Shown here piece after piece: positions 27,938 through 55,459 of a stretch of DNA of 64,000 nt. Position 1 is the stretch's first letter, and each line of letters starts with the position of its first letter. This stretch comes from an uncultured delta proteobacterium (GTDB lineage: Bacteria; Myxococcota_A; Polyangia; Polyangiales; Polyangiaceae): assembly GCA_963696385.1 (NCBI GenBank), contig CAVOKF010000004.1, forward strand, positions 1,107,705 through 1,171,704, given 5' to 3'. The notes beneath the pieces are model-generated. The model was not told the origin of the DNA. It ran no database searches and saw nothing but the letters and a program-made list of their open reading frames with translations. A program made the position numbers and the translations under genes.

Positions 27938-28029
27938 CAAAGCCTGCCGGTCGACGAAGAGCCGCGGAAGTCGGCGCGGAAACATATCGCGTTTTAGGGG
28001 CGTCCACTGTCGGTTCAGAGTCCCATTTG
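27938..28029 (-). repeat. dif-like repeat, site A (core 27977-28004, spacer AACGCG)
   Basis: Reverse complement reads GACGCCCCTAA-AACGCG-ATATGTTTCCG. Confidence 0.85.
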
Positions 28030-28424
28030 GCGTCCCCGAGGGCGCCAAGCTGGCCGCTCGGCAAGCTGCGGAGGGCCAGCGGAAGCAGTTTGTGGCGCAC
28101 CTTGCCGACCGGTTCTCGGATGGCCACCGCTTCACGGACGGTTTGCCGCAAGGGGGCGACGGCGGAGAGGACGAGCCCGGGCCCGCATAGGATGGTTTGG
28201 CGTTGGGTCGACCGCGAGAGGGAGGTCCGCGGTCGTGACTGTCGTGACCGACTCGATGGCGGCAGACGTGCGGTCCCGCATCGGTCTGCGGGAGGCCAAC
28301 GGCGACGACCGCTGCGGTGGCCGCGTCACCCCCGGGACAGGACCGGGTCACCCGACGCGGATGGCTTTCGCCGTGAAATCCAGTCGCGTGAGCGTGGCAC
28401 GAAAATGGGCGTGTTCGAGCGCCC

Positions 28425-30127
28425 GTGGCTGCTCTCGCGCCCGCCTACGTTCCCCGTCGCCCGACCGAAACGGTCCTGTACGGATTGGTGCGCGAGAATC
28501 TGGAATCGTTTCTCGCGTACGCGCGTGAGAACTACGAGGGAGGGCTACCGCGCTACGTGGAAGCGGAGCTGCGCGCGTACTTGAATTGCGGCGTATTGCG
28601 TGCGGATTTACGCGCTGCCACTGCGACTCATGCGGCCGCGACTTGCTTGTGGCCTTTAGCTGCAAGGGAAGATCTCTCTGCCCCAGTTGCTGCGGCAGGC
28701 GTATGGCCAACACGGCTGCCCACTTGGTCGACCGAGTCTTGCCCGACGTCCCTGTGCGGCAATACGTTCTGTCGCTCCCGTACGAGCTGCGCAAGCTTGC
28801 GGCGTTAAAGGCCGACGTTCTCACAGCCCTGGGCCGCATCTTCGTCGAGGCCATCTTTGCCCGCTACCGCGCTCGCGCCCAGCGCGAGGGCCTCGAGGAT
28901 GCGCAGTGCGGAGCGGTAACCTTTGTTCAACGCTTCGGCAGTCTGAATCTCAACGTGCATTTTCACGTGTTGGTGCTCGATGGCGTCGTGACCCGGGACC
29001 CGGACCGTCGTGTGCTCTTTCATCCGGCGGCCGCTCCGACGCCGGTCGAGTTCGAGGTGCTGGTCGAGCGTGTGATGAACCGCAGCGTGGCGTGGCTGCG
29101 CCGCCACGGCCATGTGCAGGACACGCCGCTCGAAGAGCGCTCGAACGAGCCGCCGGCGCAGACTGCCCTCGACGCGTGCGCGGACATCGCCATGGGCCGC
29201 GGCACAGTCGCAACCTTGTCGAACGACGACGACGGGTCGAAGGACGACGACCGCGAGGCGCGGCCCGACGGGCTCGTCGGCGCGGTCGAGCGAGACGGGT
29301 TTAATGTGCATGCCGGGGTCCGGATCGAAGCGGGCGACCATCTGGGTCGCGAACGACTGGCGCGTTACGGCGCGCGACCTCCGCTCTCGCTCGAGCGACT
29401 TCGCAGGTTGCCCGGCGGGCGGGTGGCCTATCGACTGAAGTACGTCCGTCGCGGCCGAGGCAAGTACAGAATCATGACTGGCCTGGAGTTCATGGCCCGC
29501 TTGAGCGCGATCATTGCGCCGCCTCGGTATCCGTTGGTGCGCTACAGCGGAGTGCTCGGGCCACACTCGAGCTGGCGACGCGACGTGGTGCCGAAGCCGC
29601 GCAAGACGGCTCCCGCCTGCCACCGCGCGCCCACCCCACCGCTGAGCTCGGCCAAGCCGGTCACCGGCGCAATGACGCACCCGGGCTCCGCGCTTCCCGG
29701 GGCGGCGGCGCCGACAGCGGGAAATGTCGAGAGTGCTCCGGCGCCGGCCGCCAGTTCCTCGGCGAAGGCGGGTCTGTCCGCGCTCCCCATCTTCGCGCAT
29801 GGGGGCGAGGTCATCCCGCTCACGCCCAATGTGCTTGCTGTCAGCCACTGGGAACGGCTGCTCGGCGGCGCCATCTACGCGGCCTCGCCGCGCGTGGACT
29901 GGCCCACGCTCTTGAAACGAACGTTTGACGTGGACGTTCTGCAATGTCCGAAGTGCCACGGCCGACTGCGGGTGCTCGCCGTGATCACCGAGCGCGAGCC
30001 GGTGCGCCAGGTCCTCGCCCATCTCGGCCTGCCGACCGAGGCGCCGCCCGTCGCCCGGGCGCGCGACCCGACTGACGACGCGCAAGACCCCGAGCCGTCG
30101 GATCAACTCGAGCTGCAGCTCGCGTGA
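28425..30127 (+). CDS. IS91/ISCR-like Y2 (HUH) transposase, frameshift near 28598
   Basis: Zn-binding CxxC/FSCKGRSLCPSC, RQYVLSLP, QRFGSLNLNVHFH, YGARPP, RYSGVL, C-terminal CPKC. Confidence 0.9.
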
Positions 30128-30193
30128 ACGACCGGCCCCGAGAGCGGCGCCGATGCGGCGCCGCGCGGGCGACGTGCGCTTTGGATATGTTCG

Positions 30194-30301
30194 AAATCGG
30201 TTCGCCGCTCGGTGACAACGGAAGCCCCTAAGACGCGATATGTTTCCGCGCCCGCTTCCGCGGGCTCTTCGTCGACCGACAGCTTTGGGCTTACTACTCG
30301 C
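30194..30301 (+). repeat. dif-like repeat, site B (core 30221-30248, spacer GACGCG)
   Basis: GAAGCCCCTAA-GACGCG-ATATGTTTCCG...CTACTCGC. Confidence 0.88.
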
Positions 30302-30793
30302 CCGCGTCCGTCGCAGCGTCGGGAATGGTGCTTCCTTCGACGGTCGCGGACGCTGAGCAACCGCACGCGAACACCGCAACAAGCAAGATGCCGTGCGCTA
30401 TTCTTCGATCCATCGGAACCACCCTTCCGGTCACGCCCCCCGGCGCTGGCGCGCGCGAGGGTTCTCATCACACTACCCGCGTCTATCCAACTCTTCGAGC
30501 CACTGCGTCGCTGCGGCGACGAAAGCGCGGCCCTCGGCACTCGGCACGATGGATCGCTACGCCGACCGTGCGCCGTTTGTAGCTGGCCCGGTCCCTGAAG
30601 CGCACGAACGCGGTCACGTATTCGTGTGCCTGTCCACCGTTCGGGCCGGCGCCGTCGTAGTAGCGACACGGGGTGGGGCTTCGTCCGCCAGGAAAAAGGC
30701 CGGCCCGGGGGGGTCATCGCCTGCCCTTGCCAATCCGAAGCTCGCTTTCGAGCGTCACGAAGGCCATCGCGGAGCGACGCGCCCCGTTCACGC

Positions 30794-30821
30794 CGTAAAC
30801 AATCTCAACTTTAGGGGGCGA
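30794..30821 (-). repeat. Degenerate dif-like core overlapping the toxin stop codon
   Basis: TCGCCCCCTAA-AGTTGA-GATTGTTTACG. Confidence 0.45.
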
Positions 30822-31197
30822 GCGGCTCTGGCCACCATTCGCGGAAATCGTGGGCTGAAAGCTTCTCTCGGGCACCGGCGCGGGCGAGAAGCTGAAGCTT
30901 TTCCCACAGGACCAGCGGGCATCGAATGGGGGGTGTCTCGCGGCACTCGAGCTCGTCGACACGTCGCACGTGCAGTGCGCTTTGATAAAAGTACGTCTTC
31001 TTGCTCAACCGGAGCGGCTTGTTGGCTCGCCGTTCCGGGTCCACCACCTCGTGCGGAATATCCCGGGGGCCGGTTCCGGTCCCCGAAAGGACGAGCGCTC
31101 GGGTTCCGTCGGCCGACAACCTGATCACGATGGCCGGATGCGGCTCTCCGCCAGAGTTTGGGACGATCCAAACCTTGTCGGCAATGTGCAGGGTCAT
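30811..31197 (-). CDS. Putative PemK/MazF-like toxin
   Basis: DKVWIVP..GEPHPAIVI...ALVLSGTGT...LRLSKKTYF; directly coupled to the upstream gene. Confidence 0.5.
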   Translation of the reverse strand: MTLHIADKVWIVPNSGGEPHPAIVIRLSADGTRALVLSGTGTGPRDIPHEVVDPERRANKPLRLSKKTYFYQSALHVRRVDELECRETPPIRCPLVLWEKLQLLARAGAREKLSAHDFREWWPEPLAP

Positions 31198-31995
31198 CTA
31201 CTGGATCGTTGCCGTCTCAGTGATGTACGCTTCAAAGAGAGCCTCGCCTTCGTTGTGATCGCTGATGATCTGCTCTTGTCGGAAACGCTGATCGGAAGGT
31301 ACGAGGTCTTCAGGTACGCCAGCGTCGCCGTACATCATTGCGAGCATGCGGACCACCGAACGCTCGCCCTTGACCCAGCCTCGCGCGACGGCTTCAGTAA
31401 GCCAACGCGGCGGCGATGGGCGATCCGAAAGGACGAGGTCCACGAGTGCCGCCAGGCACGCGGTACCCTGCGCGTGCGCCAGAACGGCGTTGAGCAAGGG
31501 AATTGGAAGAGCGTAAAGATCGAAGCCCTCCCAGGCAGCCCCGCTAGCCTTAGGGTCAGGAGCCGAACGAGCATGCCGTCCGAACAAGCCGGAGATAACC
31601 GCGCCGATTCTGAGCCCCGCGAGCAGATCCGTGACGAGCCCGCTCTCCTCCGGCACCTTCGCGCACACGGCTCGCATGAAAGTCACCGGATCGGCAATCC
31701 TGGCAAAGCGACCTGCGTACAAGGTCGCCGAGACCGTCCGTGCGGACTGGGAGGCTTGCAGGTCGTTCGCCTGGGCATCGAGAATGTCGAGGAAATCGGC
31801 CTCGTCTGCCGCGGTCCAGACAAGCGAGCCGATGACGCGTGCCGTTCTGCGCGCTTCGTCGATTGACGAAGGTGACTTGCTCCTCCGAAGATGCGCCTTC
31901 TGAACCCGGCGTTCATGGCGGTTCACGACTGATAGCCCGAGCAGCCACTTCTTTTCGGCCGCGTAGTCGTCAGATAGCTGCGCCAGCGCGTTCAT
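31198..31995 (-). CDS. Hypothetical protein, partner of the PemK-like gene
   Basis: 265-aa ORF whose TAG abuts the next ATG. Confidence 0.6.
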   Translation of the reverse strand: MNALAQLSDDYAAEKKWLLGLSVVNRHERRVQKAHLRRSKSPSSIDEARRTARVIGSLVWTAADEADFLDILDAQANDLQASQSARTVSATLYAGRFARIADPVTFMRAVCAKVPEESGLVTDLLAGLRIGAVISGLFGRHARSAPDPKASGAAWEGFDLYALPIPLLNAVLAHAQGTACLAALVDLVLSDRPSPPRWLTEAVARGWVKGERSVVRMLAMMYGDAGVPEDLVPSDQRFRQEQIISDHNEGEALFEAYITETATIQ

Positions 31996-32047
31996 CGGTC
32001 GTGGAATTCTAGCACGCGGAATTGGCCTGCGTTTTCGCTGTCGCACG

Positions 32048-32154
32048 GCGAGTACTAAGCCCAAAGTGCGTCGGTCGACGAAGAGCCCGCGGAGGCGGGC
32101 GCGGAAACATATCGCATCTTAGGGGCTTCCGTTGTCACCGAGCGGCGAAAGATT
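32048..32154 (-). repeat. dif-like repeat, site C (core 32102-32129, spacer GATGCG)
   Basis: Near-identical inverted copy of site B. Confidence 0.88.
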
Positions 32155-32350
32155 AGATGAACCGGTGGCGGCGCGTCCTGGACCGCCAGGCACGCCGCGC
32201 GGCACGGGTGCCGCAGCCTCGAGATCGATCGCGGGGCGTCTCGAGAGCAGCCCCCGTGCCGGTCGTCGGTCATCGAAAATAGCGACCGACCTCCCGCTGG
32301 ATTATCCATCCGACACCCCGGCGTGCTCAAAGGCACAAAGCGAAGTGGGG

Positions 32351-32460
32351 GCGAGTAGGCGGCGCAAAGCTTGTCGGCCGACGAAGAGACGCGGAAACCG
32401 CCGCGGTCACATAAAAGGCCTTTGGGGCGCTCGTTGTCATTGAAAGCGCCGTCCCAATTG
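32351..32460 (-). repeat. dif-like repeat, site D (core 32404-32431, spacer GGCCTT)
   Basis: AGCGCCCCAAA-GGCCTT-TTATGTGACCG...CTACTCGC. Confidence 0.8.
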
Positions 32461-32489
32461 CGCACCGCCGTCCCGCTTCACGGTGCGCT

Positions 32490-32599
32490 CAAATCGGTTC
32501 GCCGATTCAGCGATAACGAACGCCCCTAAGACGCGATATGTTTCCGCTGGGTCTTCCGCTGCTCTTCGTTGACCGATACCCTTTCGACTGGCTACTCGC
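32490..32599 (+). repeat. dif-like repeat, site E (core 32519-32546, spacer GACGCG)
   Basis: CAAATCGGTTCGCC...AACGCCCCTAA-GACGCG-ATATGTTTCCG...CTACTCGC. Confidence 0.88.
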
Positions 32600-32774
32600 C
32601 AATTGAGCGTTCGCCGATTCGAGTCGGAGGTTGGCTGGTCCCCATCGATGATGATCTGCTCCGAGGTGCCCGCTCGCCTCTCCGGCGCATCGCGAACTTC
32701 CTGCGCGCGCGCCGTAACCGTCCGGCCGGGCCCGCACTTGATTTAGGGGCAGAAAGCGCGGTGCGATCGGGGGC

Positions 32775-33095
32775 ATGGGACGCGAGCGTCGGTCGCGAGT
32801 CTGGTGGTCAAGCCGAGTGGCGCGTTGGCGGCGCAGCGGGCTTACGGCGCGGCAATTCGCAGAGAGCGAAGGGCTTTCGGTGTTCTCGCTTCGGTGGTGG
32901 TCGAGCCAGTTGGCTCGTGATAACCGTGCGGAGCACGGTGCGTCGGCGATCGAGCCGATCGAGATCACCGTCGAGGGGCGTCAGGCCGGCCGCGAACTGG
33001 TCGAAGTCGTGGTCGGCGCGGCGACGATCCGCTGCGAGCGGGGGACGGACGTCGGATACATTGCGGCGCTGGTTCGTGCGATCGCGGGTGCATGA
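32775..33095 (+). CDS. tnpA: IS66 accessory protein TnpA
   Basis: WRRSGLTARQFAESEGL..LRWW. Confidence 0.85.
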   Translation: MGRERRSRVWWSSRVARWRRSGLTARQFAESEGLSVFSLRWWSSQLARDNRAEHGASAIEPIEITVEGRQAGRELVEVVVGAATIRCERGTDVGYIAALVRAIAGA

Positions 33096-33457
33096 CGGTG
33101 TTCGGTTTCTCGCCTCACGTTCGCGTGTACCTCGCGTCGCAGCCGGTCGACATGCGTGCAGGCCACGACAGTCTGTTCGCGATCGTGAAGAGCTGGGACC
33201 TGAATCCGTTCAGCGGGGACCTGTTTGCGTTCGTTGGGAAACGACGAGACCGGGTGAAGATTTTGGTGTGGCACCGCGGGGGATTTTTATTGGTCTACAA
33301 GCGGTTGGAAAGAAATCGATTTCGGATCCCTGCGATCCAGCCGGGAACGCGGACGGCGATGCTCGATGCGACGCAGCTGGCGATGTTGCTCGATGGCATC
33401 GACGTCCAACACGTTCAACGCCCCGCGCTGTGGCAGCCTCCGGGTCTGGCGCGCTGA
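33092..33457 (+). CDS. tnpB: IS66 accessory protein TnpB
   Basis: PVDMR..., LFAFVGKRRDRVKILVW, KRLE. Confidence 0.92.
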   Translation: MTVFGFSPHVRVYLASQPVDMRAGHDSLFAIVKSWDLNPFSGDLFAFVGKRRDRVKILVWHRGGFLLVYKRLERNRFRIPAIQPGTRTAMLDATQLAMLLDGIDVQHVQRPALWQPPGLAR

Positions 33458-33564
33458 GCCCCGTCGCGGCCCTGTGTGTCCATTGGACACTTTGTCGCTG
33501 AAATCGTCGTCGGCCCCCACGCTAAGCCTTTTAATCTGCGCGGCGATGGTGCACGAAAAGGATC

Positions 33565-35169
33565 GTGGTTGATGCGCGAGACGTCCGCATCGCGAAGCTT
33601 GTGGAGCTGCGCAAGCGCGCCGAAGAGCGTGAGCGACAACTGGGCGAGATCGTCGCGCAGCAGCAGACGCTGATCGCTGCGCAGCAGCAACTCATCGCCG
33701 AGCTGCAGCGTCGACTGTCCGAGCAAGATGCGCAGCAGAAGGCGCGCGCCGAAGAGATGAAGGCCGAGATCGACCGGCTGGAGCGGCAACTGTTGGGCCC
33801 GAAGACCGAGCGGACCCACGTTCCGCCGATCGACGCCGAGCTTCGCAACACCGAACCGATGACCGACGAAGAGCGCGCGCGCCGTCGCGAAGAGATTGCA
33901 CGCAAGCGACGCGAACGCGCACTCGCGAAGAACGCCGCGATGGCCGTCGAGCAGGTCGAGTACCCGGTACCCGAATCGATGAAGCCGTGCGCTCATTGTG
34001 GCGGCGTGCATGCGCGAGCTCTCGAGCCCGAGCAGAGCACGACGTACGAGTACAAGCCGGGTCACTTCATCCGTCGTGTGCACAAGCGGCAGAAGCTCGC
34101 ATGCAGCTGCGGCCAGTCCATCGTGACGGCGCCGCCGCCTCCGAAGCTCGTCGTCGGTGGACAGTACGGCTTCGGGTTCGCCGCATTCCTCATCGTGGAG
34201 AAGTGCGCCGACTCGATTCCCATTCATCGCATTGAGAAACGATTCGGCCGACTTGGGATCCCGATCTCGCGCAGCACGATGAACGATCTCGTTTACAAGG
34301 CTGCCGAGATTGTTCGACCGCTCGTCGCTCGACTGCAGACGCGAATCGCGGCTCTCGAAGTCGTGCTCGCCGACGAGACCTCGATGCGCTTGCAGGACCG
34401 TCCCAAGCGCGGCTTTGTCTGGGTGTTTCACGGTCACGATGAAGTCAGCGGCGGCAAGCTTGTTCTGTATGCCTTCGCCGTCGATCGAAGCGGCGACACG
34501 CCGGCGAAGATCCTGGGTGGCACTCGCGGCACTCTCGTGGTGGACGGATACACGGGGTACAACCAGGTGACCGACCCGCTCGGACGCGCGCGCGGCGGAT
34601 GCTGGAGCCACATGCGCAGAAAGCTCTTCGAGGCGCGCTCCACCCGTGCGGCCGAGGACATCGACCCCGCGCTCGGGATCATCCGCGAGATCTTTCGTGT
34701 CGAACACGACGCGACCGAGCAGAAGATCGTCCGCACTCCGGCCCATCTCGAGCTGCGAAATGCGCGTAGCGCTCCGCTGGTCGAGCAATTCTTTCAGTGG
34801 GCCGAACACAAGAAGGTCGAGGTCCTTCCGAAGGGCCCGCTCGGCGAGGCGCTCGGTTACGCGATTAACCAACGCGCTCGACTCGAGCTTTTCTTGTCGG
34901 ATCCGCGTATTCCGATGCACAACAACGGCTCAGAGTCCCGCTTACGCGTTATTGCTCTGGCTCGCCATACGTACCTTTTCTTCGGACATCCACTCGCGGG
35001 CAAAAACTTCGCGGGGCTCTACTCGCTCGTCGGCTCCTGCATCGCCAACGAAGTCGAGCCGACGGAGTATCTCACCGACGTACTTGCCCGAGTCCGCGAC
35101 GCAACGACCGACGAGCAGCTCGACGCGCTGCTACCCGATCGGTGGGCGCCACACGGTCCAGCGCCCTGA
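33565..35169 (+). CDS. tnpC: IS66 transposase TnpC
   Basis: Coiled coil, CAHCG, ADET, VDGYTGY, CWSHMRRK, HNNGSE. Confidence 0.93.
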   Translation: MVDARDVRIAKLVELRKRAEERERQLGEIVAQQQTLIAAQQQLIAELQRRLSEQDAQQKARAEEMKAEIDRLERQLLGPKTERTHVPPIDAELRNTEPMTDEERARRREEIARKRRERALAKNAAMAVEQVEYPVPESMKPCAHCGGVHARALEPEQSTTYEYKPGHFIRRVHKRQKLACSCGQSIVTAPPPPKLVVGGQYGFGFAAFLIVEKCADSIPIHRIEKRFGRLGIPISRSTMNDLVYKAAEIVRPLVARLQTRIAALEVVLADETSMRLQDRPKRGFVWVFHGHDEVSGGKLVLYAFAVDRSGDTPAKILGGTRGTLVVDGYTGYNQVTDPLGRARGGCWSHMRRKLFEARSTRAAEDIDPALGIIREIFRVEHDATEQKIVRTPAHLELRNARSAPLVEQFFQWAEHKKVEVLPKGPLGEALGYAINQRARLELFLSDPRIPMHNNGSESRLRVIALARHTYLFFGHPLAGKNFAGLYSLVGSCIANEVEPTEYLTDVLARVRDATTDEQLDALLPDRWAPHGPAP

Positions 35170-35621: not shown

Positions 35622-36836
35622 TTATTCGATGCTTGCTCGGGCGATCAGCTCGTCCGGGCGTTCGTTTAGGAGCTCCGAGCAGGTACCGCCGATGGCGTAC
35701 GACGCGATTTCTTGTTTGAGAACACGCACGAGTGACCCGTCGAGCTCGGATCGAAATATAGCAAAAAGTCGTTCTGCAGGGCCCTCCGGATCCTTCGTGG
35801 CGAACACTACCCGTCGCAGGGATATGTTGTTTCTCAAGCCGGCAGCGATCAGGTACTTGAAGTGCCCGTCAGAGGCTGGAATTGAGAAACCGAGGATACC
35901 GATCCGAGTCGCATCGGTGAGGGCTTTCACCGCGTCGTCCCACACGAAGGCCAATGCGCCGTCGAAGTTTTTCTGCCAGGTCGGCGGAACAATCAAAGGG
36001 ACGTATCGGGCCCCCAAAAGGTCTCGGTACGTCTCGTAATCCTTCAGGAGCCTCGTGTCCGGGATCTGGCTTCGCGGATTATCGGATCCGCTCGGGCGCG
36101 CCCAATTTATCGAGCCGTGCAGTTTGAGCAGTTTGACGCAGCGCTCGTGCGAGGGCCGCTTCTCGTCGTTCGCATCGATCGTACCATAGTTCCAGTCGAT
36201 ACCGAGCGCGGTCAGCGCGGTTTCGATGACCAAGTCGTAGTTGAACGTAATGATCGTAATGCGGCGGCGCGGGTCGTCGGCCCAGACGCGGCCGGTCAAG
36301 AAGGCGTAGGTCAACTCGCTCAGGGAACGGTCGATGATAACGATCGGTTGCTGGGGCGCGTTGATCGGCATGGGCCCGCGCATAGTCGCCGCGATTGTCT
36401 GCGTCGGTTGTTCGTCTGCCACATGCTGCCAGGACGGGGGTGCCGTCCAGCTTGGACCACTGTTTCGAGGAACACCCACTTTTCCGTGTGCAGCGCGAAA
36501 CCCGGCCGAATAGTCGAGAGTCGACGCGATGGCGATCTTGACGTCGTCCATCAGGCCATTGCTTTCGCTGGCGGCTGCGAGACTGAACAGTTCCTCGATG
36601 TTCTCCGGATCCACTTGGACGCGGTAGGCGGCTGACGCGATCTCGTGCCGAAACGCCAAGACGTTCTGTATCGCCCTCTGCTCGCGCTCGCGACCGTCTT
36701 GGTCGTCAAGCCAGTCAAGTGCGTCTCGCATGCGATTGAGAAAGTTCGCGACGACCGGCATGCCTGCGTCGACCGAGGCGCCCGCGCCAAGGATGTAGAC
36801 GACATTGTGATTGTAAAGGTCAGGTCCCATGCCCAT
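35622..36836 (-). CDS. SIR2-like (SIR2_2) domain protein, probable defence NADase
   Basis: ILGAGAS..AGMP, ITFNYD, LKLHGSINW, IVPPT, ILGFS. Confidence 0.85.
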   Translation of the reverse strand: MGMGPDLYNHNVVYILGAGASVDAGMPVVANFLNRMRDALDWLDDQDGREREQRAIQNVLAFRHEIASAAYRVQVDPENIEELFSLAAASESNGLMDDVKIAIASTLDYSAGFRAAHGKVGVPRNSGPSWTAPPSWQHVADEQPTQTIAATMRGPMPINAPQQPIVIIDRSLSELTYAFLTGRVWADDPRRRITIITFNYDLVIETALTALGIDWNYGTIDANDEKRPSHERCVKLLKLHGSINWARPSGSDNPRSQIPDTRLLKDYETYRDLLGARYVPLIVPPTWQKNFDGALAFVWDDAVKALTDATRIGILGFSIPASDGHFKYLIAAGLRNNISLRRVVFATKDPEGPAERLFAIFRSELDGSLVRVLKQEIASYAIGGTCSELLNERPDELIARASIE

Positions 36837-37103
36837 TCGGATCGCGAGCGTAACTGGAGCCGCCGAATCTTGCTGCCGCCGGCGAGTGCCCGGGGCCAAG
36901 GGTCGCCAGCGATCCGGCGAAGGCGATACGCGGATCAGCCGGTGGCGATACGTTCTGTACGGCGCGCTGTCGGGTCACGCAACCGAGAATCGTGGGGCAA
37001 AGCCGAGTCCTCCAGAACCAGTGCCCCAGTGCCCTGTAGTGGGCGGAGCGAACGCCCGGGTCATCTCGGTCATCTCGGAACCGCTGCCCGAGTCAGGCGA
37101 GCT

Positions 37104-37146
37104 CAAATCGGCCGCTCGGTGACAACGGAAGCCCCTAAGACGCGAT
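37104..37146 (+). repeat. dif-like repeat, site F left half (cut by IS4)
   Basis: CAAATCGG...GAAGCCCCTAA-GACGCG-AT followed directly by IS4. Confidence 0.85.
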
Positions 37147-38622
37147 CATAAGTTGGTACTTAGGGATTCGGGATGGCGCTCGCTACCACACAAGTGCGAG
37201 TGGCTCGAGGCCCATAGCGAGACGTCCGCGCTTTCGATCGCGAGCAGGATGAGCGCGGCGCGCGTTGGAATCGAGGAACTTGAGCGCTTCGGCGAGGGCA
37301 CGACGCAATTGGCGCGGTGAGTCGAGGAGGCCGCGGAGGACATCGTCGAAGTAATGCTTGCCGGACGCGGCGGCTCGCTGGGTCGAAAGCTCCACCCCCA
37401 GCGACGCTTCCGCGAAGTGTGCGAGCGAGCGTTTCAGAAGGGCTGCGAGCAGGCTCGCCCATATCATCGCTTTCGCGATAGCGGCCTTGCCCGTATCGAA
37501 GGCATGAAGGTTGGCGTGAGATTTGAACTCTTTGAACAGGAGTTCCACCTGCCAGCGGAGGCGATACAAGCCGGCCACGTCGGCGGCGGAGAAGCGCTTG
37601 CGAGCGAGGTTGCTGTGCAGGTACACGAACGTCTTCGCGTTGCGCTTGCCGCGCTTGTAGATCGCCACAATTCGCCCGCGATACACGAATGAATTCGCCT
37701 GCCATTCGATGTCGAGATCGACCGTGTGGGCCGGAAGCAGGTCCCAGTTCAACTTCTGGCCGAGCAACTTGGGGATGGATTTGCCGGCGCTGTCGAAAGC
37801 GGCCCGAATGGTGGGTCGAATGTTTTTGGTTCCGCGGACGATGAAGGCGCCGCCCGCTTGGTCGACGTCGAAAAAGAATTTTCGCTCCTCGTACCCTCGG
37901 TCGGCCAGAAAGAGCCGCTCGCGAAGACTCGCGGCCTCGGGACGGTAGGTTCGCTCGGTCTCCTTGTCGGCCGTCAGGGCGACGATGCGCACATCGTCTT
38001 GGAGCAGACTCATCGTGACGTGCAGTTCCACGGCGGCAGGCGAGATTTTTGTAAAGCGGCCCGGCCATGTGCCTTTCAAGTCGTCCTTGAGCGCGAACGA
38101 CGTCCCGTCGTGAATGACGATGTCCCGAAAGGTCGACAGTTTGGGGGACACGGCGTGCAGAACCGGCTGGCTCATCTTCTGTACCGTCGCTTCCAGCAGC
38201 ATCCGAAACATCTCTGGAAAGGACGCTTGCGCGAGCCGGTTGTGAAAGGGCTTATATCGCAGCGAAAGGCCCGCGAATTTCCGGAACGTCCGCAGAATAT
38301 CGGCCAACCACTTGGCGTGGCCCGACCCGAGCGTCGACAGCACCGCCACGACCATCGCCAGCGGCATCACCTTGCGCACTCGCCGTAGCCAGCCGCTACG
38401 TCTCGCGATCGCGGTCACCTCCTCCTCGCCGAGTACTTCCGTAAGCCGTTTCGCATACACGCCGACTCCGGCGCGTGTACTGTTTGATCCGTGCATCGGG
38501 GGTCTCCTTTCGCGTTGTCTCACAACAGCGTCTAGAGAATCCCCGATGCCTTTGACTATCCAATTCGTGCACTATGCACGTAAGTGATCGAGATCACTCG
38601 GGAAATAAAGATCCTACCTATG
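37147..38622 (-). mobile_element. IS4 family element
   Basis: IRs CATAAGTTGGTACTT / CATAGGTAGGATCTT (reverse complement). Confidence 0.9.
37183..38496 (-). CDS. IS4 family transposase
   Basis: HDGTSF, LADRGY, YRLRWQVELLFKEFKS (YREK motif). Confidence 0.93.
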   Translation of the reverse strand: MHGSNSTRAGVGVYAKRLTEVLGEEEVTAIARRSGWLRRVRKVMPLAMVVAVLSTLGSGHAKWLADILRTFRKFAGLSLRYKPFHNRLAQASFPEMFRMLLEATVQKMSQPVLHAVSPKLSTFRDIVIHDGTSFALKDDLKGTWPGRFTKISPAAVELHVTMSLLQDDVRIVALTADKETERTYRPEAASLRERLFLADRGYEERKFFFDVDQAGGAFIVRGTKNIRPTIRAAFDSAGKSIPKLLGQKLNWDLLPAHTVDLDIEWQANSFVYRGRIVAIYKRGKRNAKTFVYLHSNLARKRFSAADVAGLYRLRWQVELLFKEFKSHANLHAFDTGKAAIAKAMIWASLLAALLKRSLAHFAEASLGVELSTQRAAASGKHYFDDVLRGLLDSPRQLRRALAEALKFLDSNARRAHPARDRKRGRLAMGLEPLALVW

Positions 38623-38694
38623 AACGGGTTATATGTGACCGCCGCGGTTTCCGCGGCTCTTCGTTGATCGATACGCTTTCGACCGGCTACTCGC
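38623..38694 (+). repeat. dif-like repeat right half (spacer CGGGTT)
   Basis: IS4 end followed by AA-CGGGTT-ATATGTGACCG...CTACTCGC. Confidence 0.85.
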
Positions 38695-38876
38695 TCCTTG
38701 CCTCCCCGCCATCGCGAGGACCGTCATCGACGCCACAACATCGCGACGACCGTCGCATATTCCGGCGTGGCTCAGGCTGTCGTTCCAATGTAGCATCGCG
38801 ACGTGAGGGGACCCTTGTCAATCGCCGTCCAGACCGCGACAGCCGCGGCGCGCAATTGGCGCTGGTAGCTACCGGC

Positions 38877-39557
38877 ATGGCGCTCATCTCCTGCCCGGAC
38901 TGCGGCCGCTCGGTATCGGATGCTGCCGTCGCGTGCGGCGGCTGCGGGCTTCCGATTGCCGGCCATTTCGTTCATCCGCAGTCGCGGCCCCGCTGGTACC
39001 ACACCACTGTTGTCGTCGGGCTGGCGCTGTTGCTTGTCTATCCAATCGGTCTGCTTCTGCTCTGGACCGATCGAAGGACGAAGGGATCCACGAAGGCGTT
39101 GGCCACCGTGCTGTTCGGTTTGCTGTTCATGGCGGTCATGCGCGGCGCATCGTCTGACCACGTCGCTTCGTCGACGAGCGACGGTTCGCGGGGACAATCG
39201 ATCCTTCACGCTATGGTGAACCGGGACCAAGCACCCACCGCCAACACCTACGCCGTGCCGCTTTCCACGCTGCTCGGCGAGTATTCGGATAACGAAGTGC
39301 GCGCTGACGTTCGCTATAAACAACATTGGATTCGGACCTCGGGGATCGTCGGCGAGGTCAAAAAGGACATCACGGACAGTCCCTTTGTGACCATTGGTAA
39401 TGGCAGCGAATTTCAGATCCCGGTTGTCCAGTGCTTGCTTGCGGATGATCAAGTCGCCCGGGCCGCAAGCTTTTCGAAAGGAGATCGGGTCAAGATCGTC
39501 GGGCGAGTCGACGGCCTCATGATGAACGTAATCATGAGGGATTGTCGGTTCGAGTAA
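38877..39557 (+). CDS. Zinc-ribbon + TM + tRNA_anti-like OB-fold protein
   Basis: MALISCPDCG..CGGCG; two TM segments; EYSDNEVRADVRYK...KGDRVKIVG. Confidence 0.75.
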   Translation: MALISCPDCGRSVSDAAVACGGCGLPIAGHFVHPQSRPRWYHTTVVVGLALLLVYPIGLLLLWTDRRTKGSTKALATVLFGLLFMAVMRGASSDHVASSTSDGSRGQSILHAMVNRDQAPTANTYAVPLSTLLGEYSDNEVRADVRYKQHWIRTSGIVGEVKKDITDSPFVTIGNGSEFQIPVVQCLLADDQVARAASFSKGDRVKIVGRVDGLMMNVIMRDCRFE

Positions 39558-39602
39558 CGGGAGGAAGGTGTCACCGGCGGCGACTCACGCTTGCCGACCT
39601 GC

Positions 39603-39712
39603 CAAATCGGTTCGCCGATTCAGCGATAACGAACGCCCCTAAGACGCGATATGTTTCCGCGCCCGCTTCCGCGGCTCTTCGTCGACCGACGCACTTTGGG
39701 CTTACTACTCGC
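39603..39712 (+). repeat. dif-like repeat, site G (core 39632-39659, spacer GACGCG)
   Basis: Full-length copy. Confidence 0.88.
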
Positions 39713-39714
39713 TC

Positions 39715-40287
39715 GTAAAGCGGCCCGGCCATGTGCGTTTCAAGTCGTCCTTGAGCGCGAACGACGTCCCGTCGTGAATGACGATGTCCCGAAAGGTCGA
39801 CAGTTTGGGGGACACGGCGTGAAGAACCGGCTGGCTCATCTTCTGTACCGTCGCTTCCAGCAGCATCCGAAACATCTCTGGAAAGGACGTCTTCGCGAGC
39901 CGGTTGTGAAAGGGCTTATATCGCAGCGAAATGCCCGCGAATCTCCGGAACGTCCGCAGAATATCGGCCAACCACTTGGCCTGGCCCGACCCGAGCGTGG
40001 ACAGCACCGCCACGACCATCGCCAGCGGCATCACCTTGCGCACGCGCCGTAGCCAGCCGCTACGTCTCGCGATCGCGGTCACCTGCTCCTCGCCGAGTAC
40101 TTCCGTAAGCCGTTTCGCATACACGCCGACTTCGGCGCGTGTACCGTTCGATCCGTGCATCGGGGTCTCCTTTCGCGTTGTCCCACAACACCGCGTCTAG
40201 AGAATCCCCGATGCCTTTGACTATCCAATTCGTGCACTATGCACGTAAGTGATCGACATCACTCGAGAAATAAAGATCCTACCTATG
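39715..40287 (-). mobile_element. Truncated second IS4 copy (5' end only)
   Basis: Highly similar to 38051-38622; cut at the site G right end. Confidence 0.9.
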
Positions 40288-40335
40288 ATAACCCGTTAGG
40301 GGCTTCCGCCGTCGCTGTAATGGCGAACCGATTTG
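40288..40335 (-). repeat. dif-like repeat, site H left half (spacer CGGGTT)
   Basis: Reverse complement reads CAAATCGGTTCGCC...GAAGCCCCTAA-CGGGTT-AT followed by IS4. Confidence 0.85.
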
Positions 40336-40846
40336 GTATCCACTGCACGAATCGGCGAGTAGCCGGTCGTTGAGCAGTTCGCCAATTTGGTCCGCCTTCA
40401 GCTCGAACCTCCCGTTGGCGGTTGGCCCATAAGAAGTCCTATGTGAAGACGGCTCCCTTGCCAGCTCGCGCCCGCTTGCACGGCCTATCCGCCCGAGTCG
40501 TCGCCGAAAGAAGGGCAGTCCACGAGCCGCTGGCGAGAGTTCTTAGGCCGCTCGCCGCTCAAGCAGGGCCTGCTGGCAGCAAGGCCCTTGCGCCAGCTCC
40601 ACGGTGCGCATCTCTTGGTCGACGACTTGCAGGGACATCAGGGGTCGAAGTGTGCCTGCACGCAAGCGTCTGCCGGGAAACACCGCGCTAATGGTGAGAA
40701 GCCCAACAGAATCAAGTAGGTCGTAGAGGAAGCACCTCAAAAACATCCCCATTTAGCGTTTCGCGAAATACCTGGCTGCGCTCTTGCATCTGCAAAACCG
40801 AGCGGGGCGGTGGATACCGATCAGTGACCGCAAGGGAGTGACTCCG

Positions 40847-44198: not shown

Positions 44199-46115
44199 CT
44201 GAAGTTCCTGAACCAAAATCGCCGAAGTTCGCGATCTTGCTGTGGAATCGGCAAAATTGACCCGAAATGTAGGCATGTAAACAGATAGAAATAGCTTTCC
44301 ATTATCGATTCGATGTGCATGATGCGGAGGCATGTACATCGCAACCGTGCCGAACCGCGGCTCTCCACCGGCGATCCTGCTGCGCGAGTCGTATCGAGAG
44401 GGCGGACGGGTCAAGTCGCGCACGCTGGCGAACCTGTCGTCGTTGACGGAAAAGCAGGTGGAGGGGATGCGGCGAGCGCTCCGCGGGGAGCCCTTGTTTG
44501 GCCCGGACGGGCCGATCCGAAAGGTGCGCGACCAAAGCCACGGTGCGGTCGACGCCGTTCGGCAAGTCATTCGCAAGTTGGGGCTCGAGGTCCTCATCGA
44601 CCGACAACCAAGCCGCCAGCGCGATCTGGTGATGGCCCTGTTGGTGGCGCGCATCACCGATGCCCAGAGCAAGCTCGCGACGACGAGGGCCTGGAAGACC
44701 ACGACCCTGCCCGAAGACCTCGGGATCGCGGATGCGACCGAAGATGACCTGTACGACGCCATGGATTGGCTCTTCGAGCGGCAGGACGCGATCGAGAAGA
44801 AGTTGGCGACGCGTCACCTGCGCCAGCAAGGGTTGGTGCTCTACGATCTGTCATCGAGCTATTTTGAAGGACACCAATGTCCGCTTGCCAAGTTCGGATA
44901 CAACCGCGATGGCAAGAAGGGCAAGCTGCAGGTCAACTATGGCCTTCTCACCGATGAACGGGGCTGTCCCATTGCGGTCCAGGTTTACGAGGGAAACGCA
45001 TCCGATTCGACGACGCTCCTCGACCAGGTGGAGCGTGTTCGATCCGACTTCGGGATTGACGGATTCGTGATTGTGGGTGACCGCGGGATGATCACGGAGA
45101 AACAGATTTCGTCGCTTCGCAAAACCGGTGGGATGACCTGGGTTACCGCGCTCAAGAGCGGTCGCATTCGATCCCTCGTGCACTCGGGCGTTCTGCAACT
45201 CGGACTCTTCGACGAACGCAATCTGTTTTCCGTGCGGGACCCAAAACTTGCCGGTGAGCGGTTGATCGCATGCAAGAACCACGATCTCGCACGATTGCGC
45301 GCACACAAGCGCCAGAGCCTTGTCGACGCGACACGCAAAGAACTCGACGCGGTGCAGAGAATTGTGGCTCGCGGAAAGCTGGTGGGCAAAGCAGCGATCG
45401 GGCTACGGATCGGAAAAGTGATCAACAAGCATAAGGTGGCCAAGCACTTCTTACTCGAAATCCATGATTCCACATTCGAGTATCGCCTCCGCGAGGATCG
45501 CATCGCAGAGGAGGCAGCACTCGACGGCGTATACGTGATTCGTACGTCCTTGAGCCAAGAGTCGACCAGCGACGAACAGGCCGTTCGCCATTACAAGAAG
45601 CTCGCGAATGTCGAACGCGCATTCCGATCCATCAAGACGATCGACTTGAAGGTGCGCCCCATTCACCACCACTTGGAAAACCGAGTCCGAGCGCACATCT
45701 TCCTGTGCACGCTCGCTTTCTACGTGGAGTGGCACATGCGCGAAGCGTGGCGACCGGTCCTCTTCTCGGACGAGGACCAGGCTGCCAAGAACACGAGAGA
45801 CCCGGTCGCGCCGGCCACCCGGTCGCCCGGTGCACTCGATAAGGTCGCCACCAAGCGAAGCGAGGACGGGGCGCCCGTCCACAGCTTCCGTACCCTTCTC
45901 GCCGATCTCGCCACGATCACCCGAAGCACCTTCGCGCCCGTCGGAGCCGACAACGAAGGCCAGACTTTCACCATGCTGACCGTCCCGTCACCCGAGCAAG
46001 CGAGAGCCCTCCAGCTACTTGAAGCCATCGCCGTGTAGGCAGTAACTCAGGCCGCGATTTCGACGGGTCCAGGGAAAATAGGCCGAATTGTGTCCCGGCG
46101 GGCGGGGAACTTCAG
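44199..46115 (+). mobile_element. IS1634 family element
   Basis: IRs CTGAAGTTCC / GGAACTTCAG; 6-bp TSD GTTAGC. Confidence 0.93.
44332..46038 (+). CDS. IS1634 transposase
   Basis: LYDLSSSYFEG, GYNRDGK, VGDRGM, YKKLANVERAFR, RPIHH. Confidence 0.93.
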   Translation: MYIATVPNRGSPPAILLRESYREGGRVKSRTLANLSSLTEKQVEGMRRALRGEPLFGPDGPIRKVRDQSHGAVDAVRQVIRKLGLEVLIDRQPSRQRDLVMALLVARITDAQSKLATTRAWKTTTLPEDLGIADATEDDLYDAMDWLFERQDAIEKKLATRHLRQQGLVLYDLSSSYFEGHQCPLAKFGYNRDGKKGKLQVNYGLLTDERGCPIAVQVYEGNASDSTTLLDQVERVRSDFGIDGFVIVGDRGMITEKQISSLRKTGGMTWVTALKSGRIRSLVHSGVLQLGLFDERNLFSVRDPKLAGERLIACKNHDLARLRAHKRQSLVDATRKELDAVQRIVARGKLVGKAAIGLRIGKVINKHKVAKHFLLEIHDSTFEYRLREDRIAEEAALDGVYVIRTSLSQESTSDEQAVRHYKKLANVERAFRSIKTIDLKVRPIHHHLENRVRAHIFLCTLAFYVEWHMREAWRPVLFSDEDQAAKNTRDPVAPATRSPGALDKVATKRSEDGAPVHSFRTLLADLATITRSTFAPVGADNEGQTFTMLTVPSPEQARALQLLEAIAV

Positions 46116-51502: not shown

Positions 51503-51520
51503 CCCGTGGAGTCGTACTCA

Positions 51521-52402: not shown

Positions 52403-52418
52403 AGGAAAGGCTGCCAAC

Positions 52419-53159
52419 ATGAAGACCGGTCGCGTTGTTGTCGTCACTGGGGCCGCCGGGGGAATGGGTGCGCTCATCGTTCGCCGCTTTCTCTCCAACG
52501 GCGATGCTGTCATCGCAACCGACACCGAGGAGAGCGCGCTCGCGCGGCTCCGCGTGGCCGAAGGGCACGGGGGCAAGCTCCTCACGTTCGCAGGCGATAT
52601 CGCGAAGGAAGAAGACTGCGATCGACTCGCCGCGTTCGCCCGGTGAGAGGTCGGTCAGGTCGACGTGCTCGTCAACTGCGCCGGGTTCTTCCCGGTCCGC
52701 GCCTCCGAACAGATCACCGCCGCGGACTGGAAGAAGGTAATCGACATCAACCTCACCGGCGTCTTCTTCATGACCAAGGCGGTCCTTCCCCTGATGAAGG
52801 GGCGAGGATGGGGTCGGATCATCAACGTCGGCTCCGGCTCGATGTTCGACGGTGTTGGCGAGCAGGTCCACTACGTCGCGGCGAAGGCTGGCGTTGTCGG
52901 CTTCGCGCGCTCTTTGGCGCGTGCCGTCGGAGCAGACGGTATCACCGTCAACACGATGACTCCCGGCCTTACCGTCACCCCGCGCGTGAAGGAGCTCATT
53001 CCTAAGGCGCTCCTGGACGAACAGATCGCGACCCGCGCCATCAAGCGCGAGGAGGTTCCGGAGGATGTTGTGGGCTCGGTGTCCTTCCTCGCATCGCCCG
53101 ACGCCGACTTCATCTCGGGTCAGACGCTGAACGTCGACGGCGGCAAGCACATGGGCTGA
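52419..53159 (+). pseudogene. SDR oxidoreductase, frameshift near 52645
   Basis: TGAAGGMG in one frame; NCAG..YVAAKAG..VDGG in another. Confidence 0.85.
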
Positions 53160-53211
53160 GCAAGAACCAACGTTGCTCACGTCACCACCAGTCAAGCGGA
53201 AGGAAACCATC

Positions 53212-53531
53212 ATGAAATCGGCCCATTTCAAGCCGGAGACGAGCGCACTCGTCTTGATCGACCACCAAGTCGGCACGTTGCAGCTCGTGAAAAACCTGCC
53301 TTCCGACGTGTCTCTTCGCAACACCGTCAACCTCGGAAAGGCGGCGAAGGCGCTCGGCATGCCGGTCGTGATGACGTGTAGCCAAGAGGACCGCATCCAA
53401 GGGCCGATCGCGCCATCGCTTCAGCGTGTCCTTCCCGAGGCGTACGAGAAACGCATCCGACGACAGGGCGTCGTCAACGCGTGAAGCGATCCGAAGTTCC
53501 GGCAAGCTGTTGTGGACACCGGCCGAAAGCT
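53212..53531 (+). pseudogene. YcaC-like isochorismatase hydrolase, nonsense codon and truncated at site I
   Basis: ALVLIDHQ...VNA*SDPKFRQAV..TGRK (TGA where the conserved W is expected). Confidence 0.8.
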
Positions 53532-53642
53532 CAAATCGGTTCGCCGATTCAGCGATAACGAACGCCCCTAAGACGCGATATGTTTCCGCGCCCGCCTCCG
53601 CGGGCTCTTCGTCGACCGACGTGCTTTGGGTTTACTACTCGC
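53532..53642 (+). repeat. dif-like repeat, site I (core 53561-53588, spacer GACGCG)
   Basis: Full-length copy, near-identical to site G. Confidence 0.88.
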
Positions 53643-53665
53643 TCGGCGCCGCCATTCTCGCTCAG

Positions 53666-53902
53666 ATGGCGAGCGATCCCGACAAGGCGTGGGTCGGGGT
53701 GGGATGGCGTCAGTACATGCACTGGTTCGCCGACGTCGAACAACGCTTGACGTCGGGCGCGACGACGGCTCGCGCCCTGATTCGAGCGGCAGAAAAGAAC
53801 TGGCTGACGCTCGAAGAGAACGACGTGTTCATGGAGGAGAAGACGAACGACGGCGAGTGGCTACGGCCATGGCTCCGCGCCGTCGTCGAGTTCAACAAGT
53901 AG
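53666..53902 (+). CDS. Small hypothetical protein or 3' gene fragment
   Basis: 78-aa ORF directly after site I. Confidence 0.35.
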   Translation: MASDPDKAWVGVGWRQYMHWFADVEQRLTSGATTARALIRAAEKNWLTLEENDVFMEEKTNDGEWLRPWLRAVVEFNK

Positions 53903-54048
53903 AGCTTGAGGCCGCCCCGGCTCGATGGTGGAGACGCGTCGCAAGCGGTGCTCTCGTTCGGCGTCGTCCCGGTCCCCACGCACGCGCCGCACGGGAGCAT
54001 GGCCGCGGGTGGCGCTTGGGGGACGGCGCGACGAGACCCGAATGACGA

Positions 54049-54643
54049 CTAAGGCACTTGGAAGTCTTGGCGGACCGTGAGACCGCACGAGAGGTATTCC
54101 GCCTCGAGGGGCGGGTGCTTGCTCGCCAAGTCGCCGTCCAGGTCGCAGAAGATGAGCTCCCGCTCGCCGGCCGTGAGGAGATCGGTGGCCTTCGAGAGAA
54201 CCGCTCCTAGGACCATCTCGTCGAACGGCTTGAGGGATTTCACCGTGAAGACCTTGAGCGTCCGAGCGACTACTGCGGGTGACGGATTCGATCCGCTCCA
54301 TGGCCCCGACGGCCGTCTGGATTTGCTGCTCGAGCGTCGAAAGCGCCGTCTTTCGATCGGCGTCGGCGAGGTCGCGAAGCTTTTCGATTTCGCCCTTGCT
54401 GAAGAGCGTCCGATCGGCGAGCCATCGTCGCAGCGCGAACTTCATCATCGCGTCCGTGAAGCCGAGGTCCTCGCGGATGATCCGGTCGCTCAACGTGCGC
54501 CACACCTCCGACTGGGAGCACCAGGGCACGTAGAGGCGAAGGTTGACGCCGTCGTTGCGTGCGAACAGCTTCTGCGCGTCTTTTGACGGCGAGGGGCGGA
54601 GCAGTTCAACGAGGAAGTTCGTCTCGACGAAGACGTGCTTCAT
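54049..54643 (-). pseudogene. PIN-domain protein, frameshift near 54280
   Basis: MKHVFVETNF, conserved E (SQSEV), PFDEMVL, FCDLDGDL. Confidence 0.7.
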
Positions 54644-54653
54644 CTGCGCGTCT

Positions 54654-55058
54654 CTAGGCCACCTGGCGGACGTGGGACCCCGAGACGGCGGGCACGATGT
54701 CCGTGATGAACGGAGCTGCGATCGCACCATCCATCGGCAGTGCGGCATTCCACCCCGCTGCCATCGACCGGAGCCAGTCGAGCACGCGCTGATCGAGGGA
54801 GCGCTGGGCCGCCGGAACCCGGGTCAGGAGCGGGTCCGTGGCGACTCGGCCATCCTCTTCGAGAGAAGCAGGCTCAAGCGACGTGTAGGTGTCGCGGATG
54901 ATCACGCACTCGTTCGCGTCGAAAAGAAGGCCGTTCGGGCAACCCAACCCAACCATTCGCTCCTTTAGTTGGGCGATGGTCGCGTCGTCGATCCTCGCCG
55001 TTGTTTCGACGACCAGCGCCGGCCGCGAATCGGGGGGGTGCGTCACCAGGAAGATCAT
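54654..55058 (-). CDS. Hypothetical protein upstream of the PIN gene
   Basis: 134-aa ORF ending 10 bp before the PIN start. Confidence 0.6.
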   Translation of the reverse strand: MIFLVTHPPDSRPALVVETTARIDDATIAQLKERMVGLGCPNGLLFDANECVIIRDTYTSLEPASLEEDGRVATDPLLTRVPAAQRSLDQRVLDWLRSMAAGWNAALPMDGAIAAPFITDIVPAVSGSHVRQVA

Positions 55059-55243
55059 TCCCCCAGCTTAATGCTCGACCGGCCCAAAAGCACGCTGCTC
55101 CGTGCGCGCGGGCCGTCGGGCCCGCACCGCGTAAGCGCGCCTCTGCTCACTTCTCTGCCCATCGACCACGGGCTCGCTCCAGAACGCCTCGCCGAGCCGA
55201 TCGTGCTCGACGACAGCGCTCGAGCCGGTGTGGAATGTGGCGG

Positions 55244-55440
55244 ATGGCCTGGTCCCCCTACCAAACCGCCTTGCGCAACGCTCTGGCGTCGCTGTTTCCT
55301 GACCGCGAGGACACCCGCGACCTGCTTGACGAGGCGGGGATCCCCGTCGCCCAGGTCGCTCTGGGCCATCGCCCAGCGTCGAACTGGCATGCGGCGATTC
55401 GCGAAGCAGCCAACCAAGGGAAGCTCGAGGCTCTCGTCGC
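55244..55440 (+). pseudogene. Effector-associated domain (EAD1-like) fragment
   Basis: LRNALASLFPD...DEAGI...NWHAAIREAANQGKLEALV; stops at the repeat boundary CAAATCGG. Confidence 0.65.
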
Positions 55441-55459
55441 CAAATCGGACTCTGAACCG
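55441..55459 (+). repeat. Left-end fragment of the repeat family (site J) at the IS110 junction
   Basis: CAAATCGGACTCTGAACCG versus site A CAAATGGGACTCTGAACCG. Confidence 0.55.

Follow-up and report, generated by a model that had tools for sequence, protein, structure and literature searches.

A ~110-bp repeat module at the 3' end of an IS91-family transposase gene, and the gene blocks between its copies, in Polyangiaceae

How do small blocks of accessory genes come to lie between copies of a ~110-bp repeat, and what exchanges them? The question is raised by a stretch of 64,000 nucleotides (contig CAVOKF010000004.1 of GenBank assembly GCA_963696385.1, forward strand, positions 1,107,705 to 1,171,704), here called, in its full length, the window. 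It belongs to a Polyangiaceae metagenome-assembled genome (MAG) of 6.94 Mb in 8 contigs (G000), and a window coordinate equals the coordinate on its contig C4 minus 1107704. A preliminary description of the window had taken the repeat, hereafter the module, for a dif/Xer-like site at which a tyrosine recombinase shuffles gene cassettes. We found that the module directly follows an IS91-family (Y2/HUH) transposase gene, that this adjacency is conserved across genera, that the transposase heads multi-copy arrays of modules, and that the junctions at the module edges are sharp. Considering these findings, we favour, with moderate confidence, the reading that the ~110-bp module is a miniature, transposase-less unit of an IS91-family rolling-circle element, with its edges as the cleavage and joining points at which cargo blocks accrete and are shuffled.

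The module and its junction with an IS91-family element

The existence of the repeat is confirmed: 7 intact cores and 3 half copies lie in the window, recovered by a repeat search, a MAFFT alignment and two motif scans, and the core pattern gives 7 window matches against 0.00 expected from 100 shuffles, the right-half motif 5 against 0.00. The genome-wide scan proposed in the preliminary description was run with an nhmmer profile made from 7 window copies (cut-off E<0.01) and returned 103 matches in G000, 74 of them at E<1e-10 and 51 covering at least 100 profile positions. These modules are concentrated in regions with many mobile elements, mostly close to contig ends, and tandem head-to-tail modules occur. 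The outer ends that had been described are borne out by the alignments, the module running from (T/C)CAAATCGG to CTACTCGC.

The transposase gene of the window (28586-30127, + strand) is an open reading frame (ORF) of 513 amino acids (aa) with the Pfam domains Y2_Tnp (2.4e-23) and Zn_Tnp_IS91 (1.4e-11), and its translation contains the HFH (HUH) and YRLKY motifs; intact copies of 567-569 aa are present on contigs C4 (one at 36433-38136) and C6 of G000. The gene is followed by the 3' non-coding end of the IS91-like insertion sequence (IS; 30128-30193, +), which in an alignment of six copies contains a perfect palindrome with 7-bp arms and ends in ...CTTTGGATATGTTCG exactly where a full module (30194-30301, +; 30187-30304 by nhmmer) begins. 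The transposase cassette named in the preliminary description is thus present, but its IS91-type identity and the abutment of its 3' end on the repeat had been missed. Across G000, all eight close matches to the IS 3' end motif, which reads ...CTTTGGATnTG(T/G)TC, stop at G(T/G)TC, with the module starting at the next base, while the other 27 matches carry 3-4 substitutions, have no module after them and look like chance. Likewise, all six tblastn matches that reach the transposase C-terminus have a module ~65 bp downstream, and metagenome contigs have loose ends at 30192, at the junction between the IS91-like element and the module. The tetranucleotide G(T/G)TC stands at all of these IS-module junctions (8/8); solo modules retain just its last 1-2 bases (Y-C).

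The same layout was found in relatives. At E<=1e-30, 125 of the 301 genomes of the order contain a relative of the transposase, and in the three Polyangiaceae genomes examined in detail (G006, G122 and G295, with 66%, 57% and 47% aa identity, respectively) the gene is followed by ~40-70 bp ending in G-N-T-C (GCTC or GGTC at the IS-module junction) and then by a module of ~100-113 bp. These cognate modules are laid out like those of G000, are much diverged in sequence, and are multi-copy in their own genomes (at least 41 matches in G122, 20 in G295 and 11 in G006). In G122, arrays begin directly after the transposase gene and extend downstream, with 18 of 22 modules on the + strand in array A and 15 of 15 on the - strand in array B, and with cassettes of 0.3-11 kb, their genes in both orientations, between the modules; no module was found in the ~5 kb upstream of either array transposase, nor further up in the genome-wide list. 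The transposase is also at the head on contig C2 of G295 (4 of 4 modules co-oriented) and on contig C8 of G006 (3 of 4). Head position and co-orientation are looser in G000 (7 of 8 modules on contig C4, 14 of 18 on contig C6). Module arrays reach ~130 kb.

Upstream of the Y2 gene, G000 carries a small ORF on contigs C4 (C4:35819-36330) and C6 that is conserved at the protein level only (51% over 136 aa), has by eye a ribbon-helix-helix-like N-terminus and may be the counterpart of IS91 orf121. A remnant of it lies in the window at ~28030-28500, cut by the inverted module at 27925-28030.

Gene blocks between modules and breaks at their edges

Besides the module at 30194-30301, the window contains full modules at 32485-32602 (+) and 53527-53645 (+), both found by nhmmer and a motif scan, at 39602-39716 (+), found by nhmmer and two motif scans, and at 32349-32464 (-), a divergent variant with the spacer GGCCTT found by nhmmer and a motif scan. 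The module at 27925-28030 (-; nhmmer 92 bits, and alignments) has a degenerate outer (3') end and truncates the small ORF otherwise found upstream of the transposase. The nhmmer search further gave a module at 32046-32148 (-), cut short by an IS110-family insertion at profile position 17; a left half at 37100-37146 (+), split by a DDE insertion sequence from a right half at 38627-38696 (+) that belongs to a different module variant; a left half at 40290-40337 (-) that abuts a partial DDE IS, at the place of which metagenome contigs L064 and L011 have a full module; and a weak partial module at 10051-10096 (-). Relative to the transposase gene, five window modules lie downstream on the + strand, three downstream on the - strand and one upstream on the - strand. 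The earlier list of copies agrees with this inventory at 10 of 13 places, orientations and the split copy included; its remnants at 30794, 40355 and 55441 were recovered neither by nhmmer (E<0.01) nor by the two motif scans.

The claim that the repeats bound exchangeable gene blocks held up for two blocks that recur in other contexts. The first (30302-32047, -), which lies between two inverted modules and encodes two ORFs (128 and 265 aa) of no known family, with no Pfam or PADLOC match, is 99.5% identical in the metagenome contigs L015, L039, L041 and L082, and recurs with a different neighbour: L039, L082 and L015 diverge exactly at the module's 3' edge at 30301, and L041 retains the module. 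The other encodes an OB-fold (tRNA_anti-like) domain protein (38856-39557, +; Pfam 6.8e-19) and recurs at 94.5% identity beside a module in another array (C6:46694-47535). A SIR2-like domain protein of a type seen in defence systems is encoded at 35622-36899 (-; Pfam SIR2_2; best PADLOC SIR2 model 1.1e-13). For the 'PemK-like' and 'PIN' pairs that had been listed among the cargo, Pfam gave no support at E<=0.05.

Breaks of homology at the module edges were also found elsewhere. Locus L025 and G000 C7:116194 part at a module 3' edge, and L093 and G000 C7:1383534 at a module 5' edge. In G122, a 3.9-kb duplicate with 100% identity starts in one copy at a module 3' edge and ends in the other at another module's 5' edge, the counterpart at each break being non-module DNA, and a 1.3-kb duplicate ends at a module 5' edge, again against non-module DNA. 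Breaks within the core were seen in G000 as well, and at the loci checked all of them coincide with an inserted element. A histogram of break positions is fuzzy, as alignments run on into similar repeats. For one G122 module, synteny in 90 other genomes of the family amounted to single-gene matches at scattered places only, a weak hint that neighbouring cargo blocks may be unrelated to each other.

The same-genus search detected the module in G000 and in 1 of 24 other genomes, with 27-29-nt matches only in two more, and a scan of genome contigs gave 17 loci, 16 of them from one Polyangiaceae MAG and one from a contig of an Acidobacteriaceae MAG (L018). A scan of metagenomes returned 86 stretches with a module. 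Of the public runs listed, 20 of 24 contain the window stretch, all as assembled contigs; among contigs from four public runs some end at modules, and both alleles are present at 30301, and no interpretable circle or excision joint was found among these assembled contigs. As a side observation, positions 2081-5753 of L018, modules included, are 99% identical to G000 C6:44675-48348 (3.7 kb), and represent either a contig in the wrong bin or a very recent transfer.

At the left of the region, window positions 26000-26982 (~980 bp) recur at 8 other places in G000 with 97-99% identity and constitute another multi-copy element, next to which a fragment with the relaxase-associated domain DUF3363 lies at 26885-27352.

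The module core and the elements that land on it

Internal variation was computed over 94 distinct full-length copies. The variable spacer between conserved arms, reported previously from the window, holds in this larger set: the spacer windows have an entropy of ~1.04-1.11 bits and, of 107 six-column windows, belong to the six with the highest variability, and the core flanks CCCC.AA and TATGT are nearly invariant. Three further stretches of the module are as variable as the spacer. Spacer columns are statistically linked with columns of both arms, and Cramér's V averages 0.38-0.50 inside blocks, 0.41 for the left block against the core and 0.39 for the core against the right block; left and right module variants assort as a mosaic, in which linkage decays gradually and without a drop at the spacer. 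Some modules carry a 170-bp sequence between their left and right halves (L050:1403-1572; also L013, L042 and L084), flanked by spacer-like 8-mers. Partial copies of it occur at G000 C2:75401, C2:119289, C7:94439, C6:58462 and C6:48247, where pieces adjoin several orphan right halves, and it could represent a longer form of the module or a small inserted element.

Several ordinary identities for the module were rejected. No Rfam family reached its gathering score in the 64-kb window, three copies folded on both strands gave z values of -1.43 to +0.61, and the fold of the alignment, with insert columns removed, reached ~-1 kcal/mol or weaker, so that the module is neither a structured RNA nor an attC-like hairpin; in the left part of the module, the stems seen by eye sit in different registers among variants. 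A protein-coding repeat was discarded on reverse-strand ORFs that, by eye, stop short of the conserved sequence and contain stops in some variants. Modules are intergenic, and for 62 copies with genes called within 400 bp by a crude gene finder the upstream genes are 24 in the same and 21 in the opposite orientation, the downstream genes 20 and 23, a lack of bias on which a promoter, a terminator or another gene-linked element was rejected. A miniature inverted-repeat transposable element of the terminal-inverted-repeat type is also excluded, since alignments show two module ends that are unlike each other, without terminal inverted repeats, and no target duplication was present at the flanks of 37 full module copies.

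The preliminary description had correctly stated that no tyrosine recombinase is encoded in the window, as a Pfam scan indicates. Elsewhere in G000, two ~310-aa Phage_integrase genes with the top scores (C3:320375 and C3:186117) are, as we infer from size and score, the host's Xer-like recombinases of the XerC/D type. A scan of G000 for the inner dif-type palindrome gave four matches, two of which correspond to a module copy; the best other candidate (C7:603464) is absent from all 30 further genomes of the genus that were compared and resembles a promoter. The host's chromosomal dif was thus not found by palindrome scan and same-genus comparison, GC skew being uninformative. In the pdif model, the sites that flank a gene module stand in alternating (inverted) orientation. 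Such alternation was not found here, the modules being direct in G122 (18/22 and 15/15) and mixed in G000. Besides, none of five genomes has an integron integrase (TIGR02249) above the cut-off.

The module is a preferred landing site for other mobile elements, of at least five kinds. An IS4-like DDE insertion sequence of 1476 bp (window 37147-38622, -; Pfam DDE_Tnp_1) sits in a module core; G000 has 11 full copies (including C7:1397665, C6:108748, C8:878418 and C5:728478), nine of them with a 10-bp target duplication at sites of the form T-T/A-A...T-A/T and six touching module cores. The two 10-mers that flank the window copy differ, which indicates a recombinant between two IS copies, and a partial copy (574 bp) of this DDE insertion sequence, identified by sequence match, lies at 39715-40288 (-). 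The IS is unlikely to be a 'dif hunter' of the IS1202 type, considering its DDE_Tnp_1 domain and 10-bp duplications: the IS1202 family has 5-bp duplications and a TnsB-like enzyme (PMC10132070). An IS110-family element with a 377-aa DEDD transposase occupies one module position, after ...AAATC, in six copies (G000 C4:1019403, C2:23318, C6:22337, C6:105769, C6:114413 and a 195-bp end remnant at window 32156-32350, strand not assigned, which is 98-100% identical to DNA beside five 377-aa IS110-type genes). Two kinds of group II intron (RVT_1 and maturase domains) are inserted at fixed module positions, at ~27 of the profile on the module strand and at ~101 on the opposite strand (G000 C6:20647-22020, C7:1370378-1371751, C7:1357096-1358442 and C2:76113-77381). 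Finally, a 2.3-kb IS91-type element of G122 encodes an Xer/IntI-like tyrosine recombinase of 271 aa (Phage_integrase 1.8e-39) together with a Y2 transposase of 319 aa. It is found at C3:5221652-5223433 and in at least nine further copies (locus L156:6652-8430), and at least 9 of 10 copies sit at one fixed position of the module core. The end of the element reproduces the adjacent core arm at 9 of 12 bases, and its junctions also fit the IS91-type tetranucleotide CTTA/CTTG. The fixed position suggests that the core may be recognised by a recombinase; G000 has no close relative of the element. Other mobile-element genes of the window are an IS66-family unit (TnpB_IS66 and DDE_Tnp_IS66) at 32775-35169, a 568-aa DDE_Tnp_1 gene at 44332-46038 and a 506-aa IS110-family gene at 55856-57376.

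Origin of the arrays and comparison with known systems

Based on these observations, we propose a theoretical scheme in which the module would be either the right-terminal ~110 bp of the IS91-like element, released solo, or a mini-element made of its ends. The Y2 transposase would cut one strand at both module edges, on the 5' side of (T/C)CAAAT after a G-N-T-C-like tetranucleotide and on the 3' side of CTACTCGC, and DNA would be joined at these edges without target duplication. DNA from the right edge of a module to the left edge of an upstream module would then be copied out and re-inserted beside another module, and because any run between modules could be copied and re-inserted in this way, cargo would accrete into mostly co-oriented arrays after the transposase. 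The cutting at the edges by Y2, the direction of copying and the growth of the arrays are steps that we infer.

Several results weigh against this scheme. A search over 248 module hits in G000 and the external loci revealed no empty site, which leaves the mobility of solo modules a supposition, and the bases before solo modules are GCTC, TCTC, ..CC or similar, never GTTC. The IS 3' region resembles the right half of the module weakly and mostly not significantly, the observed score being reached by 557 of 2000 shuffles in G000, 35 in G122, 141 in G295 and 1494 in G006. Comparison of copies did not define a left end for the element in G000; upstream of the transposase copies similarity fades inside the small ORF, and no module-like sequence was found further upstream. 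The window copy of the transposase has an N-terminal frameshift (a 1-nt gap in the alignment), and a rolling-circle model assigns no role to the core's conserved arms and variable spacer. Finally, IS copies that are 91-98% identical adjoin quite different module variants, so that an IS landing next to modules and a module that is the IS's own end are indistinguishable.

The core leaves room for a tyrosine recombinase, which may be a rival to the transposase or an added layer. If modules were sites for host XerC/D or a relative, crossover would occur in the 6-8-bp spacer, cassettes would move as circles, and the IS91-like element and the other ISs would be 'site hunters'. This would account for conserved arms around one of the most variable stretches of the module, for direct-repeat arrays as in G122, which are expected from serial circle integration, and for different module variants beside near-identical IS copies, which fit hunting; the host has two Xer-like recombinases, at least 9 of 10 copies of an element with an Xer/IntI-like integrase occupy a fixed core position in G122, and dif-hunting IS families are known (PMC10132070). 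The mechanism nevertheless appears improbable to us, because the core breaks only at IS insertions, homology that ends against non-module DNA does so at the outer edges, no break was found in the spacer, where the preliminary description had placed the crossover, and linkage passes the spacer without a drop. A transposase heads every array examined, which random hunting would not yield, and the module sequence varies between genomes in step with the transposase; on the same side stand the lack of an integron integrase above the cut-off in five genomes, the fit of the G122 integrase junctions to CTTA/CTTG, and the missing host dif for comparison. On the other hand, edge cutting and core crossover could both reshuffle the arrays if the module were a composite unit, an IS91-type end with a working tyrosine-recombinase site in its middle. 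All the evidence for rolling-circle transposition is shared by this alternative, which in addition would explain the arm-spacer-arm conservation and the integrase-Y2 elements in the G122 cores; we regard it as unlikely, as no direct sign of core crossover was seen, G000 is without a close relative of the G122 element, and the conserved core could be just a binding site of the transposase or of a host factor.

The module could also be inert and abundant, for instance an ancient regulatory or partition-type site from the backbone of a plasmid or of an integrative and conjugative element, and would then spread only with host DNA and by homologous recombination, and attract ISs. Such an origin would fit the absence of empty sites, the mosaic over the whole repeat, as from gene conversion, and the five kinds of mobile element that target the module. 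Its edges are sharp against unrelated DNA, however, modules stand in tandem head to tail, ~100 copies show no orientation bias relative to genes, just 1 of the 24 other same-genus genomes searched has the module, and the association with the transposase gene is constant from genus to genus, all of which makes this explanation very improbable. Returning to the IS91-type miniature, a more far-reaching form of it would be that Polyangiaceae carry an integron-like capture platform run by the HUH (IS91-type Y2) transposase, with the gene at the array head, its 3' end as the entry point, the modules as dual cleavage sites for single-stranded cassette circles inserted in one orientation, and the dif-like core as a second, tyrosine-recombinase layer (host Xer or the G122 integrase-Y2 elements); we put this forward as a speculative and doubtful possibility.

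Accounts of the IS91 family describe no target duplication, a GTTC/CTTG-type tetranucleotide flanking oriIS, terIS cut at CTCG or GTTC, subterminal palindromes near the ends, a single-stranded circle as the active intermediate, and transposition of mini-elements with ends of 89 and 82 bp (PMC13181058). For IS801, frequent right-end miniatures of 229-679 nt that start at the tetranucleotide, and the occasional carriage of neighbouring DNA, are described (PMC3189936). The system described here resembles the IS91/IS801/IS1294 family in its Y2/HUH transposase with a zinc-binding domain, in short transposase-less units that share the right terminus, in the lack of target duplications and terminal inverted repeats, in the G-T-T-C-type tetranucleotide of the IS-module junction and in the palindrome near the end, and the modules have the look of IS91/IS801 miniatures that are short and fixed. 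It differs from that family in the fixed ~110-bp module that follows the first, ori-like IS end and is present in ~100 copies, in the long co-oriented arrays headed by a transposase gene, and in the arm-spacer-arm core. In the IS common region (ISCR) elements, rolling-circle read-through captures cargo beside an IS91-type end, orphan ends are found at mosaic junctions, and no second defined end is required. As in these, cargo here lies beside an IS91-type end and orphan ends mark the junctions of mosaic regions; to our knowledge, ISCRs do not build arrays of a dedicated ~110-bp module. In listings and abstracts of the literature on IS91 ends, arrays and pdif, to which TnPedia/ISfinder and subscription papers are external, we found no account of module arrays that have an IS91-type gene at their head.

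IS91 and ISCR elements are known to drag neighbouring genes, and little is understood of how they assemble mosaic regions. In the present case, a defined ~110-bp unit in ~100 copies per genome bounds defence-type and other accessory genes and is identified as a landing pad for at least five kinds of mobile element; a dif-like look is insufficient to call it an Xer site. If the transposase does cut at both edges, the modules would represent a second way to integron-like cassette arrays, by a different mechanism, and a tractable substrate to study gene capture by rolling-circle elements.

With the Acinetobacter pdif modules, the system shares short conserved sites that bound small accessory gene modules, an 11-6-11-like core and the targeting by insertion sequences, in parallel to the IS1202 family (PMC10132070). 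The module differs from pdif in its length (110 bp vs 28 bp), its tie to an HUH transposase, the breaks at its outer edges and its direct, not alternating, orientation in G122, and it could not be matched to a host dif. Integron attC arrays, including clusters of attC sites lacking integron integrases (CALINs), also have the recombination gene at their head and cassettes separated by ~100-bp repeats, and are likewise targeted by IS110/IS1111-type elements, group II introns and integrase-bearing IS91 elements; unlike integrons, the arrays described here have no IntI and no attC-like hairpin, their cassette genes stand in both orientations and many cassettes are multi-gene. Among the features tested for membership in pdif or attC systems, the host Xer-like genes are present, and breakpoints in the spacer, alternating orientation, an integron integrase and an attC-like fold were not found; overall the system appears to work like IS91/ISCR capture while looking like an integron.

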